64,000 nt of DNA from Lophium mytilinum (lineage: Eukaryota). Shown piece after piece: positions 20,249 through 31,010 of the stretch (its first letter is position 1; every line of letters starts with the position of its first letter). The position numbers and the translations under genes were made by a program. Under the pieces are notes generated by a model. The model ran no database searches and was not told the origin of the DNA. It saw only the letters and a program-made list of their open reading frames with translations. The stretch is from the NCBI GenBank assembly GCA_010093605.1, contig MU004191.1, positions 356,816 through 420,815 of the forward strand, read 5' to 3'.

Positions 20249-23200
20249 GGTGGAGTATGTGGAGTGAGGTTGGCGGGGTAGAGCGAGAGGACGATTGACC
20301 GATCCGGCGGCGAATCTCTTGCTTGGATTAACGATTGTTGCTTTCGCGCGAGCTACCAGAACTATCGAGCTCGCATGCTGGTCGGGGTCTGGAGGGGATT
20401 TTGATGTTCAATGGCGCTCTCGGGCAGGCAGTGAAGATTTGGAAGAGGCGGGAGGGCGGTTTGAGGGTTGAGGCTGGCTGGTGTCAGGTCGCAGACGTCG
20501 AACTCGTACAGTCTCAAGGATTGCGGCATGATGGGCTTTTGGTTCATGCGAGCACTCTCGGACGCCCACCGCACCGGGCGCAGGCGCCGGATGAGGAAGA
20601 GAGGGACTCTGTGGGCCGTGGTGCATGAATTAACCGCCCTGCCCATCGCGGGACGAATCACGGCTGCGATCTGCTCCCGTCGCACAGGCCGAGACGCACT
20701 GTCACACCAGACGCCATGGGGTAACGGGCCCTGATTGGGGGGGCCCCTCTCCCTCCCCTGGAGTAGCAGCTTTGAGGCGTCCACTGTATGAGCGCCGCCA
20801 CCTGGCAGCGTCGAGTGTCTCTCCACCAGCACAGTCTCGGCGCAGGAAATCGTGGTCGCGAGAAAGCCACACGACGATAGTCTGCTCAAGAAGAGAACGG
20901 CCGATAGAAACTACTGATAGCGAGCTCTATCACCGTGCAGATGCTAGGTTGGAACGCCTCTTTTCACAGCACACGCAGTAGTCCAGCTGTCGTCGAGAGC
21001 TCGTGGCACCCGTCCCGCTGCCGTTGACGTGGGAATGGGTGCAGAATCGCCGTGGCCCAGCAGGCCCAGCCTCCTCGTCGTCCTCGTCTAGCTATCGATA
21101 TCCTCCTCTATCGATACACGAGTCAGACCAAGACCACGAGACCCGGCCCATCGCGACCTCAACTCTGCAGGGCCTGGTGCCAATCGCGTCGGCTCGCACA
21201 GTTCACCATCGGCACATCTTCTCGCCCTGGGCCTCGATGTGATGCACCTCGCAGCCGGGCCTGCAGCACGCCAGTTCTACCCCACACGCTGACCATTCCC
21301 CAGGAGATATCTGCAAGTACAGTCTGTACAGAGGAAAGCATCTCTCTCGTCGCCCGCACATTGACCAGGAGGGTCTGGAAGGCTGCCAGACTGGCCCGTA
21401 TGCGATTGGACAGCAAAGTATATCAAATAAGGCCCTGTCTTCCGTCTCAACATGCTCTTCAGTAGGCGCCATCTAAATGTACTCATAGCCGTCTCGAATT
21501 AGAACAGTTGAATCGAGGTACAGAAGCCCCTCGACAGACTATTCGATACGACTGTTTGTCTGAGCGGTGAAGGATTTGGATTTGCTGGTCACGAGCAATT
21601 CAACCCCTAATAGCCGCAATGCTGAGCAGTCCCTTCTCAACACCCATTCGCAGACGGAAATGGACTAGACGGACGGGCCGACAGACGGCTTCACGATGGC
21701 AGAGAGAGGGCAGCAGGGCACATGGCGGGCGTGGCCGCTCCTTTGACGGGCAAGACATTAACGAGTCCAAATATAGCTCCGCTGACGCCAGTGCGGGCTG
21801 GTCGCGGGCTGGTCGACGGCGGCACCACTCGGCTCGTCCCCCAGCGCTTCGACATCGGCAAGGATTGGCTCGCCTGCTTTTTGAGGCTGCACAGGGGAGA
21901 CCAAGAGAGCAGACTCGCTGTTGTTGCTGCCCTCCACGCACCACTGGCCTCGAATCTCCAGGGCTTGCACCACGCCAGCGGCGGCCTGCCAGCCCTAATT
22001 GAGCCCAGCAGCGTGATTAAGTTCCGTGCCGTACAGATGCGACGGCAATCATCCGGGGTCTTTTGAACCCTCGCTTGCCCGTGGAAGAGCCACCTCTCCA
22101 CCACATCGTTGAACGTTGCTGCAGGCGTTACCAAGCTTCCCCACGCCCGTCACTCCTCAACACCCTCAACACGCCTGGGCACTCGATCCACGACCTCCTC
22201 CCCGTCTCTCGCAATTGCACCCGTTGACCGTACACCTCACCTGCCTTCCCCTGCCTCCGTGCTGTGCTGTCGCGACTCCGTTGGCCCAAACGTCCTGTGT
22301 TTGGGAGCCCCCTGCGTATCAGATTCCGGCGTCTCCAGTCCCAATTCGACACCCACCTCCTGCAACCGCCGCAAAATCGCATCATCGACTCTGCTCTGTC
22401 GAAGAGTTTGCACTGCCTCCCTACTGTCACCGGATTGAATTCAGCGGTTCTGTGTCAGCAGAATCAACGTAAAGCTGCTCCATACGTCCTCAACTCCCAG
22501 CGCCACAATCCGCGCCGCAGCCTCACCACTCCCACGCGCCGCATTACGAAGTGCTCTCGCTTCTCAAAGTCTCATCGCTGTTTAAGACCCGCCTACGCAG
22601 GAACCGTCCCCAGATCGCCGTCCAAGCGCACCTAAAAGTAGCCCTACGCCCCGGTATCAGATTCAAAGATGCTCAACCCGCGCACGTTACACACCTGAGA
22701 CGCCTGTCCGACACCGCTCACCGAACGCATTTGTCTCCCTCCCTTCTCCCATATTACCCTCCGAAGAAGGACTACTGCCTCAGGACTGCTTGATTGCCCA
22801 CCCGTCCCCATCTTTTCGGCAGGCAAAAACCGTCATCGGCCTTGGCACCTCGCTCAATACGAGAGCATCTCAGGCTACCAGTTTGAGCCACTCTACCTAC
22901 AGCCTGTCCACGGCCTACCTCAGTTTCAGCAACCTACTGCCGGCCCGCCCTAATCAAGCTCTGGTCGTGCGAGTTCCACCAGACGCCAGGAAACTCGAAT
23001 CGATCTAGTCAAAGCTTGTCCTCATTAACTCATCACCCCTCCTGTTGTACGATCGATTCACCGCAATCCTTCCCGTCTCTTCGACACTTCCACTCCTTCC
23101 TTTCGTTCTCTGGCTGGCCGGGTTGAACCGCGACTTCACTTTCTTTCCGGTGCAGGGCGCTCTTCTTACGACCTACTCGCTTTAATCTTCTAATCGCACC

Positions 23201-23311
23201 CTTCCGTTGACCGGTGGTCGTTCCTTTGTGTTTTGCTCTCACAGCAGGGTCTTATCCATCTCCTATCTCGACTTCTTGTTCATCGTCACTTGCTCAAGCA
23301 AGACCGCAACT

Positions 23312-25113
23312 ATGATCACAGCCGCGTCACTGAAGAGGTGGTTCACCATCAAGAAGAGTCTGTTCTATATCTTGTTTTGGGGTTTTCACTGGAGCATGTT
23401 CGCATATGGATGGTATGTTTGCCCTTCTCTGTTCACTCTGGTCCCATTGCTAACCTTCAAAGGTGGAAACAAGCCGGTGATGAGCGACTAGCGGCACTAA
23501 ATGGACTCAAATTCTCCGTGTGGATTTCTCGAGGAGCAGGATTGGTGTTGTCGATAGATGTGTTGTTGATTCTTCTGCCCATGTGCAGGAATATCCTCAG
23601 GTGGATTCGACCAAAGGCTAGGTGGTTGCCATTGGACGAGTCTCAATGGTTCCATCGACAAGTCGCCTACGCTTTGCTTTTCTTCACAATTGTTCATACC
23701 GCTGCTCATTACGTCAAGTAAGTTCTCATCCCTTGTTCTTCAGGTTCTGGGCTGACTCTAGTAGCTTCTTCAATGTTGAGAAGACACAAGTCCGCCCAGA
23801 GACGGCAGTGCAGATTCATTACACCCAAGCGGGTGGTATTACAGGTCATATCATGCTTCTCTGCATGATGCTAATGTACACCACCGCTCACCATAGGATA
23901 CGCCAGCAATCTTTCGAGACTTTCTGGTATACTCATCATCTTTTCATCCCATTCCTGTTGGGCATGTACACTCACGCCACTGGCTGCTTCGTGCGTGATA
24001 GCGTTGAGCCGTTCTCACCCTTCGCCGGTGCCGGTTTCTGGAACCATTGCATTGGCTACGAGGGATGACGATGGGAGCTTGTTGGCGGCGGATTGTACCT
24101 CATCGAACGTCTCTACCGCGAGATTCGTGCTAGGAGAGAGACTCAGATCGTCAAGGTCGTCCGTCATCCTTATGGTAAGTACATGATATCACATACTATT
24201 GCCATAGCTAACTCTCCCAGACGCTGTGGAAATCCAGTTTACCAAACCATCAATGAAGTACAAGCCAGGACAATGGCTATTCCTGAATTGTCCCGACGTG
24301 TCACACAACCAGTGGCATCCGTTCACCATCACCTCATGTCCCTTCGACCCGTACGTCAGTGTGCACGTACGACAGGTCGGGGACTTCACCCGAGCACTCG
24401 CTGATTCACTTGGAGCCGGCCAATCGCAATCGAAGCTCTATGACGAGCTAGATCCCATGGGAATGTACGAAGTTGCGCTGCAGCATGGCCAGAAGATGCC
24501 AAGACTACGCATCGACGGCCCCTACGGTGCTCCCGCCGAGGATGTCTTCGAGAACGAAATTGCCGTGCTAATAGGAACTGGTATCGGCGTCACGCCCTGG
24601 GCCGCCATCTTGAAGAACATCTGGCATCTCCGCCTCTCTCCCAACCCGCCTAAGCGTCTCCGCCGTGTCGAGTTCATCTGGGTCTGCAAGGACACCAGCT
24701 CGTTCGAATGGTTCCAAGCGCTGCTCTCTTCCCTCGAAGCACAGTCGATGGGCTCGCCCAATGGCGGTGCCGAGGGTGCTGACTTCCTCCGTATCCACAC
24801 CTATCTCACCCAACGCATGGACGTCAACACTGCTAACAACATCGTGCTCAACTCCGTCGGTACCGATAAGGATCCGCTAACAGAGCTGAGCAGCCGGACC
24901 AACTTCGGCCGGCCGAACTTCTCGCGTCTGCTCACTGGCATGCGCGACGGCATCATGGACCGCAGCTACATGAACGGGCTCGAGAGCTCGCTGCGGACAG
25001 ACGTCGGAGTCTACTTCTGCGGGCCCAGCGTTGCGGCGCGGGATATCAAGAAGGCGTGTAAAACGGCGACGTGTCAGGAGGTCAACTTCAAGTTCTGGAA
25101 GGAGCATTTCTAA
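23312..25113 (+). CDS. noxA: NADPH oxidase NoxA/Nox1 (gp91phox homolog) with an in-frame TGA at codon 220
   Basis: Exons 23312-23412, 23463-23717, 23765-24174, 24221-25113 (552 aa if read through). Haem His (WFHRQ..VHTAAHY, YTHHLF..YTH), FAD motif HPFTITS, NADPH motifs DGPYGAP and GTGIGVTP, FCGP, C-terminal KEHF. TGA at 24066-24068. Confidence 0.93.
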
Positions 25114-26254
25114 GCTCCCAACCCTACTTAGGTTGTACTTTTCCCTTGTGTCGCTCAGTGTACGAATGGGGTTCTCTAGCAAGAAAGGATGAGGTGATGC
25201 TAACAACGGCAGTCAATACCAGGGCAAGGCAAGGCAAGGCAAAGGCGTTTGATCTCGTTTTCTCCAGCTACATAGATTCTTGTAGGCTGCTGTATGCTAC
25301 GTTATGTGTATTTCTCGAGAGTCTTTCAGCGAAGAGCAGCGTTTTAGCGTGAGTCTCTATGAGTAGGATGCATCACGGAGGGGGAATTGTATCGATGGGG
25401 AAACTCTATTGAATATGAATATCTTTCTGCAACAATTCTTTTTGGTTGATAAGGTGGTTGTCCGCATTGAGGCATGCTCTTGGAGCTTCGTTCGAGAATG
25501 AGGCTGACAGGCGGTTGCTGGCGCAGAGGATGTGTCGGGTTTGATTGGATTGGTAATTGGTATCACCATTTTTATCTGTCACCTTTCGCAATCCTCGGCT
25601 CGAAATTGGTTGCATAATGCCTCAATGTGCGCCTGAGAGATCTCTTCTCTCGTTCACGAAATTGGGCTGCTCTCCAGCCTGAGCAGTAGCTGTGCTGGGG
25701 TGAGCACATCCTAAGCTGATACTAAGGTGGAATTGTAACCCCAGCCCTGGGCGCTACATAAGAAGTCACCCTGCATCGGACGGCCTACAGGCCTGCAGCT
25801 TTGTCAATTCTAGTTTCCGGGCCCTGGGTCTTAAGTAAACTTGCTCTCAGATATGTTACGGGCAGTTCTACAAACAGCCAAGGATCTTTACTCTGTAAAC
25901 GTCAGTAAAAAAAGGAAGGTTGTCTCCTTAGATCACGTAATGTGACTTTTGGGGTGTAGCTTCACGAACACTAGATGTTCTATAGAAGACCGCTACAAAC
26001 GGGCATGATTTTCCATTTGTCTGCCTTGCGAAAAGAACAAATATGGATTGGGAAAAAGCGGTATCAGCGCACTCCGCCTGCATTAGGGCTAAGTCTCAGC
26101 CTTGCGTCCTACCTCCATCCTCACTCTTTCCTACCTCTCCCCTTTCCATTATACAACAACTCTCTACTAGCCATTCCATTTTCCGCTTCTTATGAGCAGT
26201 TTCCACAGCTCCCTTTGCATCGCTACATGCGTCGCCCCCCATCTCGGCTAGGCT

Positions 26255-28049
26255 ATGGAAGTTGCTGGCCTCGCGCTCGGTGTGGCCGGCCTTGCTAGGC
26301 TCTTCTCCGCCTGTGCTAACGGTTTCGCTCTCATCCGCCGAGGCCGAGCGTTAGGTCACGATGTCCGGATCCTCGAAGCCAAGTTCAGTAATCAAGAGCT
26401 GAGACTCAGAGCTTGGGGACGGGCGTGTGGGTTTGCTGAAGACGGCGAGGCTGGGAGGCGTGGAGTCGAAGGCGCTGAAACGAACAAGAACTATGATGAG
26501 CGACTCGATGTGCCGGAGTTGAGAGCGAATGTTGCGGAGACGCTGGAGTGTATTACGACGTTGCTTTACGATGGGGCTGGGTTGCGGGGCCGGTACGGGT
26601 TGAAACCTTTCCCAGTTGATGAGAATAACGACGCGTCGTCGCCGACTGCTGATAGTGCGGATGGGGTAGAGAAACGGAAGAATTTCAATCGACTTAGTTT
26701 TCTGCATAGTAGCAGGGCCAACAAGGAAAAGAGCAGCTCGTTTCGTTCGTCAGCGGCGTGGGCGATCGAGGACAGGTCCAAGTTTGCCGAGCTGGTTTCT
26801 CTTCTCAAGGACTTGGTTGATGATTTGGAGGATATTACTCGAGCCACAGACATCCCGAGACGGCAGCTGGTGTTCATCGGGTACGAAATAGAGGCAATAA
26901 CGGATGTGGAAACTCTAGAGGAGATGGAAATGACTGGAGAAGGAGAACATGACACGGTTTCGGACGCTGCGAGCTTGAGGCTTGAGGTTATCTCAGGAGC
27001 TGCTTCTAGTGTGCGAGCATCGATCGGATCCAGGAGTCTACGGTCGTTCAGAACGCTGCAGTCGTATGAGACTGCGAGAAGTCGGTTCTCTGATCCAAGC
27101 AGTCGGTCCTCCGTTGCCAGCACTGCGGACAGAAATACAAGAGTGGATCTCAAATGTGCTAAGTAAGACTGGTAGACTCGAAATCAACATTGGAGAATGC
27201 TTGCTGATTTAGTCCAGAGTACTCGTCACAGGACCACTAGAGTCATACAAAACGCACTTACTCCAGAATTTCATTTCTACCTCTATCCTCAGACATTATA
27301 AAAGAGCTGTCTTTGAGAGGTATCAGGCGGCATCGCCAGCATTCCTGTAAGTGTATACCGTCGACTCCGGGTCTATAGAATACACTTACGGCTTGGACAT
27401 GATCACATAATCTGACCGTGGTGAAATGTAGTCTTAATGGTCACATCGTGGTACCGTTCAGATATGACGATCATGAGATAATGTTTTCTCTTTGGGACAC
27501 AGTTGGAGAGGAAAATTATGATAGACGACAGCTTTACTCAAATGCTGACGTCGTCTTAATATGTAATTCCGCGTCCGTAACCGGAAGAAATGAAATGCGA
27601 CAAACATGGGCACCTGAGGCGAAATCCAGCAACACCCCTTACATGCTTGTAAACATAAAGCCGGGTGATGGTGATAATGGCGTGTTTACGAATGTGGCAG
27701 AAGAAACAGAAGAAGGTGCTCATGTGTCCACGTCGGAGATACTCGGGTTAAATCTTGGTGATGAATTTGGGGCGCTTTCTTACCTTCAATGCAGCTTGTC
27801 CGATGAGAACTCCGTGACCCAAGTTTTTGAACGGGTCAGCACTCCGATAACCTTCCATTTGAGAAGACATTTAACTAAATCCGCTCTCTGACACAGATCT
27901 TCCAGTACTTTATACCAAATTCAGCTAAGGCAACACAGACACAATTGAGTAGAACTTTCAATGTACCGGCAGACTTGATGATATGCAGGTGGCCGAATGA
28001 GGTTCCTTCGATGACTGCTAGGAGACTGTGGCCAAATAAATTTCCCTAG
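26255..28049 (+). CDS. HeLo (HET-S/MLKL-like) domain fused to a degenerate Rho-family GTPase domain (~520 aa)
   Basis: Exons 26255-27162, 27218-27346, 27462-27834, 27897-28049 keep frame. N-terminal MEVAGLALGVAGLARLFSAC...ELRLRAWGRACGF...WAIEDRSKFAELVSLLKDLVDDL is HeLo-like. C-terminal KVLVTGPLESYKT / YKRAVFERY / LWDTVGEENYDR / YSNADVVLIC / YLQCSL..VTQVFE is Rho-like. Last exon least certain. Confidence 0.8.
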
Positions 28050-28795: not shown

Positions 28796-29153
28796 TTAAA
28801 GCTTGACGCAGTTGAGTGCGTTGATAGAAATAATGGCGCCCTATCATTGGTACAAGATCAGCTCTGGGTGGCAGTAGCGCGCTAAGGGAAGAGCAGAAAG
28901 AAGCTTAAATTGGAATCGGGAGGGATTGAATCAGAGGACTAAATAGAAGAGGGTTGCTTACAGTTGTGGCGTCAGTAGAGCAGCAGTACGTCGAGGCGTC
29001 ACAGTTGCTGCCGAGCACTTGGACCACGCAGTTGAGTACTCCGGTGCAGCACACCTGCTTGTTGTTCCCGCCGTTGCAGCTCCCCCCATCATTAGGGGCA
29101 GCAGAGGTGGCGAGAGCCAAGGAAAGGATGGAGAAGACGGTAGATGGCTTCAT
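28796..29153 (-). CDS. Small secreted 8-Cys hydrophobin (78 aa, atypical spacing)
   Basis: Exons 29153-28962 and 28840-28796: MKPSTVFSILSLALATSAAPNDGGSCNGGNNKQVCCTGVLNCVVQVLGSNCDASTYCCSTDATTGAIISINALNCVKL. Signal peptide plus C-CC-C-C-CC-C pattern. Confidence 0.88.
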
Positions 29154-31010
29154 TTTGGGATGATATGGAGAAGAGTTTTGAAGTTGGAATGGATGATATG
29201 ATGAAGTGAAGGTATGGTGCTTGTTGCTTCTGGCTGTTTGCGTTGTGCTGATGATTGCAGATCGGAATGAAGGGCCATGGCTCTTATATAGACGCCCGAG
29301 CACGTTCAGGTAGAGCCTTAGCTAGAAGTCACGTCCCTTCTCAGCTCAGCTTTCCTCCTCCTTTTCCAGCTGTACAGGGTCTACCTAGTTTCATTAAATC
29401 CCTCTTGATGCAGAAATTTCTATTGGAACGTAATGAAGTCGGCATGTTGACGATTAACAGGAGTGCATTAAGGTTTCAACTGCAAGCCTCAAAGACGCCT
29501 CTTTATCCATCACACCGCTCGTGATGCAAGAGTTTCCACAAAATGTAGAGAAAACTTTCAAGGGAGCGCATCTACGATCCTTATTCATCCCTTACAAAAT
29601 AACAAAGCCATAGCAAAGCAAAGAGCACTCTAATTCTCCCAGAGACCGGAATAGCTAGCAAAATTACGCAAGGGAAACAGATCAAGGCGGATATGCCAAC
29701 GATTTGTGCGTGAGACTCTAGGAGATATACTGGAAGAAGTCTACATTAGCAATTGTTTAGCCGTCAGGGGTTTCCATTTATTACAGTCTACTGCGCTTCT
29801 GCGGAGCTATTCATACTCAATTATTTCCCAAGTAGTGGTAGTTAGCATATCCCCAAGGCAGAGATATCAAGCTATACAAAACACCTAGCTGACCAACCGA
29901 CCACAAACCTTTCAACCAAACTTTCTAATACAACACGCTGCGGTGTAAAAAGACTCTGAGACATAATCCAAATGCGGTTGCGGGGGATCGTCGAGCTGCA
30001 TCTATGACGCCTAATTGGGGCCTGTGGGTTCCGCGGGCCGGACCTTAGACTTTCCGCAATTCTGAGCTGATTCGGTGGACGCTTGGAAAGCTTAACCCCA
30101 GATACCAGTAGCTTCAGATGGAGACTCTGCCCGAGAGGGCTCAGGCCGGCTTCTTCCCCTATTGGCAGAGCAGCGCTCCGGAGTCCACTGATGACTCCCC
30201 GTGCCGCGATCCGATGCGCGTGCTAAAGAATCTGCATTAGCTCTTGTGTTACGCATAGGTACCATACTGGCGGCTACGCGTAGTCTACTACTGGGAGCAT
30301 CAAGTTCTTGGCAAGTTGGTTGACGGTCTTGTGTTGTAGACTCTTCAGTCTGCGACTACTTAGCTTTCACGTCATGTGTGGCAGGCTAGGATCGGCTCCC
30401 TCAGGCCTCTACTGTCGACTTTGAAAATAGCTTTCACAGCTCAATGAAGCGGTCAGTGAAAGCCAGTTGACGCACAAGCCGTCAAGTGAGCGAACCAGAT
30501 ATACAGCGTTGCATCGAAAGCTTGCAACCACATGCACGAACTGGAACTGGCGAGCAGTCAGCTGCCTGGTTTGAGCGAAATGTCGGTGGATGCTTCTCAC
30601 GAACCAACTACTTTTCACCGGTCTCTTTCCGGCATGCAGCATTGTCTATACTCCTCATATAGCCCACACACACGGGACACACCGGTTGTTTGATGGTCGT
30701 AGTGGGCGGGAGGTTCCGCAAGACACCGAAAGTAAGGCTACTGCCGTCGATGGTGAATCAAGTTAGCCTGCCGTTCCAAGTATCTGGTTCTGGCAACTGG
30801 TCGAATGTTTTCCATAGCGTTATGCCAGTACATTGAACAGGAGGGTTTCCGGACTTTGAGACTCGTTTGACTGATCGTAGATGTGACCAGCCCCGTGGCA
30901 TCGAATTCTCGAATCGAGAGTTGGGCTTGGAAATACTCCCTGCGTTTCTGCGATTGGAACCGCCCCCTCAAGCACCGCCATATTCTTCCAGATCTGCCAG
31001 GCTGCTGTAA

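Follow-up and report, generated by a model that had tools for sequence, protein, structure and literature searches.

A Lophium mytilinum gene joining a HeLo domain to a degenerate Rho-like domain, a candidate single-chain cell-death protein

A four-exon gene at positions 26255 to 28049 of a DNA stretch from the fungus Lophium mytilinum (Dothideomycetes, Mytilinidiales) was analysed by sequence comparison and structure prediction. The window, as used here, is the whole 64-kb stretch of DNA that was analysed. The predicted protein has three parts: an N-terminal HeLo domain, a Ser/Arg-rich linker predicted to be disordered, and a C-terminal domain which, on good evidence, descends from a Rho1/RhoA-type small GTPase and has damaged nucleotide-binding motifs. 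On balance, and by a modest measure, we think it probable that the HeLo domain is a latent executioner of cell death and that the Rho-like domain is its regulatory or sensing module.

All features of the gene lie on the plus strand. Exon 1 (26255..27162) encodes the HeLo domain and the linker, and is followed by intron 1 (27163..27217, 55 nt, GTAAGA...CAG), which has an in-frame TAA at 27164-27166. Exon 2 (27218..27346) encodes strand beta1 of the GTPase fold, the P-loop GPLESYKT (27231-27254), helix alpha1 and switch I, YKRAVFERY (27297-27323). Intron 2 (27347..27431, 85 nt, GTAAGT...TAG) separates it from exon 3 (27432..27834), which encodes the Rho-like core with the motifs DTVGEENY (27496-27519), NIKPGD (27652-27669) and QCSL (27787-27798). 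Intron 3 (27835..27896, 62 nt, GTCAGC...CAG) interrupts helix alpha5, and exon 4 (27897..28049) encodes the remainder of that helix and a tail without a CAAX box, ending at the stop codon TAG at 28047-28049. A branch-like site, CTGAT or CTGAC, lies 12-20 nt 5' of each of the three acceptors. When the exons were joined by a script on the window coordinates, they gave a coding sequence of 1593 nt, that is 530 codons plus the TAG, with no internal stop. The original prediction of four in-frame exons with intact splice sites, made from the letters alone, is borne out by this reading, in which all three introns are of the GT..AG type.

The first junction is visible in public data. A 1028-nt contig of the public run X1 matches 26149-27162 without mismatch and then continues for 14 further letters, which occur once in the 64-kb window, at 27218-27231, exactly where exon 2 starts (0/100 shuffles match). 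X1 is listed as 'RNA?', so that its RNA status is a guess, and it was available in contig form at a low depth of 5.9. Intron 1 has been removed in the molecule behind the contig, and the TAA at 27164-27166 is therefore not the end of its product. The start of the contig at 26149 sets the minimum extent of the 5' untranslated region at 26149..26254, ahead of the first in-frame ATG at 26255.

The remaining junctions were compared with two relatives. One is the ortholog from Mytilinidion resinicola, which has 527 residues and is 77% identical over exon 3. When the Mytilinidion protein was searched against the window with tblastn, exactly four segments were found (residues 1-303, 302-346, 347-480 and 471-514), lying on the four exons, and no second copy of the gene was found in the 64-kb window by the same search. 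On either side of intron 2 the reading frame agrees with that of the ortholog. The other relative is a Pleosporales-type metagenome locus, L003, whose exon 1 is 84% identical to a Lentithecium protein. Introns of L003 match all three of the window gene in position: one lies just ahead of strand beta1, one follows switch I (the equivalent of intron 2), and one lies within helix alpha5. The metagenome loci are at most 50% identical to the window gene at the protein level, and L002 and L003 are 99.95% identical to each other.

The Lophium protein is also recorded at NCBI, as the 'hypothetical protein BU16DRAFT_582840', with 483 aa, 100% identity over exon 3 and both PF14479 and PF00071. That model ends ...VFERVAE and differs from the four-exon model in its last exon. 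Read from the sequence, it shares the intron 3 donor (27835) and uses an acceptor at 27988, for a splice from 27834 to 27989 and a stop at 27998-28000. This 3' end skips the conserved start of exon 4, and is either a mis-annotation or an alternative isoform which would truncate helix alpha5. The four-exon, 530-residue model seems the better supported of the two, because exon 4 shares 25 of its first 33 residues with the Mytilinidion C-terminus (the tblastn segment spans 27882-28001), because it supplies the rest of helix alpha5 in the GTPase fold (H470-484 when the ortholog is modelled), and because L003 has its intron at the same alpha5 position.

These data also bear on the possibility that the locus is a decaying pseudogene or a gene-prediction artefact which makes no fusion protein. 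Retention of intron 1 would end translation at the TAA and leave a 303-residue product, the intron 3 donor GTCAGC is weak, and the database model ends differently. The original prediction had named transcripts ending at the TAA at 27166 as the sign that there is no fusion, and the X1 contig instead joins exon 1 to exon 2. The four exons are open and match the ortholog, and a relative as distant as L003 has the same exon structure. The pseudogene explanation is thus largely refuted, and we consider it very improbable. That the locus is a genuine transcribed four-exon gene, with its first junction spliced, is well supported.

Residues 1-258 (26255..27028) form the HeLo domain, as indicated by Pfam, by matches to HET-s structures and by an AlphaFold2 (AF2) model. 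In a hidden Markov model (HMM) search, exon 1 matches Pfam HeLo (PF14479) at E 1.6e-40 with 139.5 bits (cut-off 23.2), and residues 5-223 align to the nearly complete profile (1-204/205). Searching exon 1 with phmmer against the HET-s structures 2wvn/2wvo gave E 3.6e-8, and the alignment takes in the N-terminal helix (paired with HET-s residues 7-66) as well as the last helix, which bears the S-D-A-A motif. The AF2 model of the exon 1 product was built from a 70-row alignment and has a predicted local distance difference test score (pLDDT) of 70.9 and a predicted template modelling score (pTM) of 0.66, with helices from 10-26 through 234-258. Foldseek with this model found only 4 PDB matches at E<=0.001, all of them N-terminal domains of HET-s/HET-S (2wvq/2wvn/2wvo) at TMt 0.65-0.66. 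Gly and Ala abound in residues ~3-27, a hydrophobic stretch whose mean Kyte-Doolittle value is 1.69 against -0.37 for the whole protein. Sequence and model together give good support to a true HeLo domain of the HET-S type.

The linker (27029..27162) is Ser/Arg-rich and predicted to be disordered. Its pLDDT falls below 50 at residues 263-287 of the window exon 1 model and at 258-296 of the ortholog model. The 56 residues from 246 to 301 include 15 Ser and 9 Arg, with many R-x-x-S patterns. Within a motif S-[YF]-x-T-A, conserved in the family, S270, T273 and A274 show little or no variation across the family alignment. A hidden amyloid motif in the linker was considered and rejected, because HeLo is the sole Pfam match of exon 1 at E<=1 and because of the Ser/Arg-rich make-up.

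According to passages of PMC10197012, refolding of the C-terminal domain of HET-S triggers its HeLo domain and frees an N-terminal transmembrane helix; parts of PMC12881547 and PMC4835503 describe HeLo and HELL domains as cytotoxic pore formers. The window protein is like HET-S of Podospora anserina in having a HeLo domain homologous by sequence and fold, in its hydrophobic N-terminal helix, and in its last HeLo helix, which ends in S-D-A-A just ahead of the C-terminal module. By analogy, that module would control the killer domain in both proteins, although in the window protein such control is presumed. The window protein differs from HET-S in that it has no amyloid prion-forming domain by the same Pfam scan of exon 1, its C-terminal module being a globular Rho fold, in that no gene for a NOD-like receptor (NLR) lies beside it, and in that its linker is Ser/Arg-rich.

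The C-terminal domain matches small GTPases in sequence and in predicted structure. Exon 3 matches Pfam Ras (PF00071) at E 1.1e-7 with 32 bits (cut-off 21.6); exons 2 and 4 are too short to score alone. For the Mytilinidion ortholog (P0006), the nearest solved structures are Rac1 (E 8.3e-18) and RhoA, at E ~1e-17. The whole ortholog was modelled with AF2 from a 126-row alignment (pLDDT 72.6, pTM 0.56), which gave a confident GTPase core from beta1 to alpha5, low confidence at switch I (327-348) and a tail with pLDDT below 50. With this model, Foldseek placed Rac1 and RhoA at TMt 0.71-0.79, and VIA-align gave Z 18-19 for small GTPases, including 18.8 for S. pombe Rho1; the HeLo part was barely tested by the same comparison. 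Descent of the domain from a Rho1/RhoA-type small GTPase is well supported by the alignments and the models, because a less derived member of the family, P0181, is closest to yeast Rho1 (E 2e-34).

The motifs which bind and hydrolyse GTP are altered in the Lophium protein. Residues are numbered by the alignment of the Mytilinidion ortholog to Rac1, in which the P-loop is G10-T17 and switch I is Y32-Y40. In the P-loop GPLESYKT, the second Gly is replaced by Tyr and Gly12 by Leu, while Lys and Thr are kept. Switch I, YKRAVFERY, has Ala for Thr. The G3 motif DTVGEENY has Glu for the catalytic Gln and keeps Asp and Gly. At G4, the TKLD of Rac1 aligns to IKPG, so that Gly stands at the place of Asp, with an Asp one position further on. 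The G5 motif QCSL has Leu for Ala, and the C-terminus (...WPNKFP) has no CAAX box. The ortholog keeps the Pro-Thr of switch I and, its G4 being IKPD, the Lys and Asp of that motif too. Compared with Rac1, it also has a 13-residue insertion between switch I and strand beta2, and it aligns across the Rho insert region with a 2-residue gap, where the model has no helix (423-444, pLDDT 61-72). This region is shorter in Pleosporales members. The HeLo and Rho-like assignments of the original prediction, and the altered motifs as it had quoted them, including the missing CAAX box, were recovered in these comparisons.

Parts of PMC3460580 report that RhoA G17A, a change of the same P-loop glycine, binds neither GDP nor GTP and binds active exchange factors tightly. 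Since the window protein has Tyr at this glycine, loss of nucleotide binding is predicted, and the Rho-like domain in Lophium mytilinum is probably nucleotide-free. PMC12490416, in the portion available, defines a class i pseudoGTPase by the absence of both nucleotide binding and hydrolysis; the window protein combines a GTPase fold with loss of G-motif residues, which makes it a candidate for that class.

The same architecture is found in other fungi. When the HeLo half of the ortholog was used as query, 70 of 7999 scored candidates were returned. Their precomputed Pfam annotations show PF14479 with PF00071 in 18/70, PF14479 with UQ_con in 6/70, PF14479 with AAA in 1/70 and PF14479 only in 45/70. 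Hosts of the HeLo and Ras combination include Lophium, Mytilinidion, Clohesyomyces (two), Zopfia, Lophiostoma, Kalmusia, Didymosphaeria, Bimuria and Lentithecium, and also Zalerion, Cladorrhinum (two), Naviculisporaceae sp., Lasiosphaeria and Podospora fimiseda. Lineages were looked up for Lophium and Zalerion; with the remaining hosts placed in the classes which we take them to belong to, the fusion family spans Dothideomycetes and Sordariomycetes. Many of the 'HeLo only' entries of ~340 residues come from short contigs, and these entries may be exon 1 alone.

The other half of the protein was used for searches as well. Of the other 68 proteins of the HeLo set, 51 show no cryptic copy to an HMM of the Rho-like part, which did pick up the start of one in P0156. 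The exhaustive representative-protein search with exon 3 gave 578 matches at E<=0.001, with only its own cluster below 1e-30, and no HeLo domain was found in the 20 top or odd-length matches scanned. Word-indexed searches with the Rho-like part found relatives in 2/129 and 3/483 candidates. A separate protein-atlas cluster has 77 Ascomycota members of ~555 residues, 96% of them with Ras and 12% with PF17111 (the fungal N-terminal domain of STAND proteins). As a lead only, the atlas score of 0.92 and the 164 shared features hint that HeLo-like and Ras architectures are more widespread than the 18 proteins.

A tree was built from the Rho-like domains of 16 fusion proteins and 39 ordinary single-domain Rho proteins, the latter picked by length from the exon 3 search; P0165 and P0167, whose domains are partial, were not included. 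A branch with SH-aLRT support of 99 separates all 16 fusion domains from the ordinary proteins, and so a single origin of the fusion is not rejected by the sequences. The Mytilinidiales pair sits on a long stem of 1.48 changes per column. P0156, a Mytilinidion resinicola paralog of 379 aa, has a HeLo domain 59% identical and a longer linker with repeated ETRSLR units; its P-loop has an insertion, and its model stops 36 residues into the Rho-like domain, probably because the gene model is truncated.

Across the family, the G motifs are degenerate in different ways. The P-loop pattern GxxxxGK[ST] is canonical in 3/16 rows with the region (P0181, P0203 and P0215, all Sordariales-type), and the second Gly is lost in the other 13/16, being R in 6, H in 4, Q in 2 and Y in 1, the window protein. 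The P-loop Lys is kept in 13/16 and the Thr in 16/16. The switch I Thr is kept in 6/16, among them the Mytilinidion ortholog, and is Ala in the window protein; the G3 Gln is kept in 10/18 and is Glu in the window protein. At G4, [NT]KxD is canonical in 0/18, the nearest forms being IKPD (Mytilinidion), xEPD (several Pleosporales) and LKCE, with IKPG in the window protein. At G5 the Cys is invariant and the following Ala is found in 0/18 (CSL in the window protein). A CAAX box, scored as Cys at -4, is likewise found in 0/18, the window protein included, though several gene models may be cut at the C-terminus. In the 14 full rows, G10, T17, F37, D57, C81, W97 and C157 are conserved in 14/14, G60 in 13/14, and K16, P34 and E62 in 12/14. 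These conserved positions make up the fold core and the phosphate and switch II elements. Taken at the level of sequence, this is the pattern of a pseudoenzyme retained for its surface, in which lineages have lost different nucleotide contacts and have kept the fold and the switch II face.

The same counts can be read in favour of an atypical switch which still works: the Rho-like domain would bind GTP, or ATP with relaxed base specificity, and its state, set by a guanine nucleotide exchange factor (GEF) and a GTPase-activating protein (GAP), would gate the HeLo domain. The ligands of phosphate and Mg are mostly kept (Thr17 and Asp57 in 14/14, Gly60 in 13/14, Lys16 in 12/14), the three Sordariales-type members have a canonical GxxxxGKT, G1 to G3 being intact in members of that type, and 10/18 have DxxGQ, and the ortholog retains the switch I Pro-Thr and the Lys and Asp of IKPD. 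In the window protein, however, five positions are altered together, including the P-loop Gly at which Ala abolishes binding in RhoA (PMC3460580, in part), and no family member has a canonical G4 or G5. We regard a working switch as possible and unlikely.

Conservation between close relatives speaks for a maintained domain. Between Lophium and Mytilinidion, 185/225 residues of the HeLo domain (82%), 53/76 of the linker and 135/178 of the Rho-like domain (76%, with one gap column) are identical, so that the Rho-like domain is conserved nearly as well as the HeLo domain and better than the linker. Because its identity is 76% against 82% for HeLo, the Rho-like domain seems to be under constraint, and to judge from these identities the gene is a conserved pseudo-GTPase fusion and not a decaying one. 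The original prediction had considered that homologs might have intact motifs and this copy be decaying; the nearest ortholog proved to be likewise degenerate, with its Rho-like domain kept about as well as its HeLo domain. Over the whole family, the median pairwise identity is 51% for HeLo, 33% for the Rho-like domain and 22% for the linker (91 pairs from 14 rows, 4 rows having been dropped for gaps).

Rho1/RhoA-type proteins need membrane attachment. A second way to read the fusion is as a membrane-tethered Rho-like scaffold which does not kill, in which the hydrophobic HeLo N-terminus would replace the lost prenyl anchor and the protein would serve polarity or signalling without lethal effect. 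In favour of this, the family goes back to Rho1/RhoA-type proteins and has CAAX in none of its 18 members, with the same caution about cut gene models. On the other side, the HeLo domain is full-length over profile positions 1-204/205 and more conserved than the Rho-like domain (51% vs 33%), and 250 conserved residues go beyond the need of a simple anchor. The HeLo domains which have been studied are pore-forming and cytotoxic, according to parts of PMC12881547 and PMC4835503. A non-killing scaffold seems to us rather unlikely.

The relatives with other C-terminal modules belong to the same HeLo clade. Six of them (P0206, P0209, P0214, P0219, P0221 and P0223) are fused to UQ_con and keep its HPN...C active-site pattern, and P0220 is fused to an AAA ATPase. 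From the sequences, C-terminal signalling-enzyme modules seem to have been swapped onto the HeLo domain of this clade.

Such interchange, with UQ_con in 6/70, AAA in 1/70 and no other domain by Pfam in 45/70, would fit a Rho-like domain which is only a passenger, adding bulk or driving oligomerisation, while the HeLo domain is triggered otherwise, for example by an unlinked NLR or by phosphorylation of the linker. The conserved Ser/Thr and the many R-x-x-S patterns of the linker fit this as well. A passenger is at odds with the retention of the fold, of the intron positions and of 76% identity to the ortholog, and a single origin with retention in two fungal classes argues for a selected role. 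We think this explanation quite unlikely.

We return to the reading in which the Rho-like domain regulates the HeLo domain. In this proposed mechanism the HeLo domain would act like that of HET-S, as a latent executioner which permeabilises membranes. GTP cycling would be lost in the Rho-like domain, which would be a built-in regulatory or sensing module holding the HeLo domain silent. A partner which binds or modifies the Rho-like domain, by way of the conserved switch II face, would then release the N-terminal helix. The layout would be analogous to that of MLKL, whose helical killer domain answers to a dead enzyme fold.

Several observations weigh against this reading. The window protein has retained Lys16, Thr17, Asp57 and Gly60, and to judge from its sequence it may still bind phosphate or nucleotide to some extent. 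The whole-ortholog model, at pTM 0.56 and with a disordered linker, shows no fixed contact between the HeLo and Rho-like domains. Family-wide, the Rho-like domain evolves faster than the HeLo domain (33% vs 51%), which fits a sensor under changing selection and also fits relaxed constraint. RNA support is limited to junction 1 at the depth of 5.9, with exons 2-4 covered by 14 bases only. Neither the window locus nor L003 has an adjoining NLR gene or other obvious partner gene.

A more specific form of control would be a guard on one chain. The Rho-like domain would then be a nucleotide-free mimic of Rho1 which traps proteins drawn to Rho when it is empty or has its switches exposed, such as activated exchange factors, microbial mimics of them or Rho-modifying toxins. 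Their binding, or a modification by them, would release the HeLo helix and kill the hypha. This decoy reading fits the P-loop change and the sister fusions with ubiquitin-conjugating (E2) domains. Known Rho-modifying toxins attack Rac1 Thr35, Asn39 and Gln61, and the equivalents of these residues are not conserved in the family, which argues against a decoy for one specific toxin. We hold the guard to be an unlikely explanation, if a conceivable one. If it were true, it would be a case of effector-triggered immunity in which the pore-forming executioner itself carries the integrated decoy and no NLR takes part, the sister UQ_con fusions (6/70) would be further decoys of common pathogen targets, and fungi would sense attacks on Rho signalling, as animals do via pyrin.

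Parts of PMC6698799 and PMC11781737 describe how immune cell death is coupled to the state of a Rho GTPase (pyrin and RhoA) or to a copy of a pathogen target (the integrated decoys of plant NLRs). By analogy the idea would be the same here, either to guard Rho or to carry a copy of the target, with the difference that the Rho copy would be part of the executioner itself, no NLR or inflammasome being involved, and that its ligand is hypothetical.

The comparison with MLKL holds at the level of layout. MLKL and the fungal and plant HELL-kinase proteins combine a membrane-attacking helical bundle, a linker and a dead copy of a signalling enzyme, an arrangement the window protein would share by analogy; passages of PMC12881547 describe it and report that part of the HELL domains are carried on kinase or pseudokinase proteins in the manner of MLKL. 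In the window protein the dead enzyme is a small GTPase, and the Pfam scan of the four exons found no kinase family. The kinship of HeLo with the MLKL four-helix bundle is taken from the literature, MLKL being absent among the 50 Foldseek matches listed for the HeLo model. The 'MLKL-like' of the original prediction therefore stands as an analogy of layout, and not as a kinase fold or a structural match to MLKL.

Ordinary Rho proteins are highly conserved. The Rho-like domain resembles Rho1, RhoA and Rac1 in sequence and fold, and shares with them switch II (DxxGxE) and the hydrophobic core. It differs from them in its degenerate G1, G2, G4 and G5, in the Glu at the catalytic Gln, in the absence of CAAX and in its place behind a 300-residue N-terminal region, and its family evolves much faster than ordinary Rho (33% median identity within the family). 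It is like the pseudoGTPases, such as the middle domains of p190RhoGAP and AAGAB, in having a GTPase fold with missing G-motif residues, and such domains serve as protein-interaction modules, as portions of PMC5593906 and PMC12490416 state. It is unlike p190RhoGAP and AAGAB in sequence and context, neither of those sits on a cell-death domain, and their lack of binding was measured, while that of the window protein is predicted.

The architecture itself is not new to databases. The original prediction had allowed for this, and it is already recorded, in the Lophium entry and in 18/70 HeLo relatives. HeLo and Ras proteins carry automatic labels, among them 'P-loop containing nucleoside triphosphate hydrolase protein', 'Rho-BTB domain-containing protein 1' and also 'gtp-binding protein rho2'. 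The original prediction knew of no functional description, and our text searches, whose scope did not extend to subscription journals, found no literature description of a fusion of HeLo with a Ras/Rho-family domain. GTPase and Rho are unmentioned in the main texts of two reviews of fungal cell death and immunity (PMC12881547 and PMC10197012) and of a survey of NLR effector domains (PMC9815663); in the main text of the last, 'Ras' matches RasMol only. What would be new here is a C-terminal control domain of a type not described before on a HeLo executioner, and it is the control role which we infer.

In fungi, HeLo and HELL domains correspond to the killer domain of MLKL. They are known to be controlled by NLRs that template amyloid, by being fused directly to an NLR, and by kinase-like domains. 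A dead Rho GTPase behind a HeLo domain would add a fourth control logic, and would be a natural pseudoGTPase wired to a cell-death output. The family is also convenient for experiments: the protein is small and single-chain, and natural variants run from near-intact P-loops (Sordariales-type) to heavily degenerate ones (Mytilinidiales).

One protein found in the searches, P0067 (399 aa), combines a CARD death-fold domain and a coiled coil with a Rho-like domain whose G motifs are canonical and which ends in a C-x-x-x box. As far as its sequence tells, it is an independent pairing of a death domain with a Rho GTPase outside fungi.

The gene has two neighbours in the window. The upstream neighbour (23194-25113, +) is a gene of the ferric-reductase/NADPH-oxidase (NOX) type, with Ferric_reduct, FAD_binding_8 and NAD_binding_6. 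Fungal NADPH oxidases are regulated by Rac. The adjacency of a NOX-like and a Rho-like gene is nevertheless probably a coincidence, because the neighbours at L003 are different, namely a Haspin-like kinase and an annexin. Conserved synteny was rejected on the same comparison of the window locus with L003. The downstream neighbour (28905-29321, -) is a small, secreted, hydrophobin-like gene (Pfam Eas/hydrophobin, E 8.3e-8).

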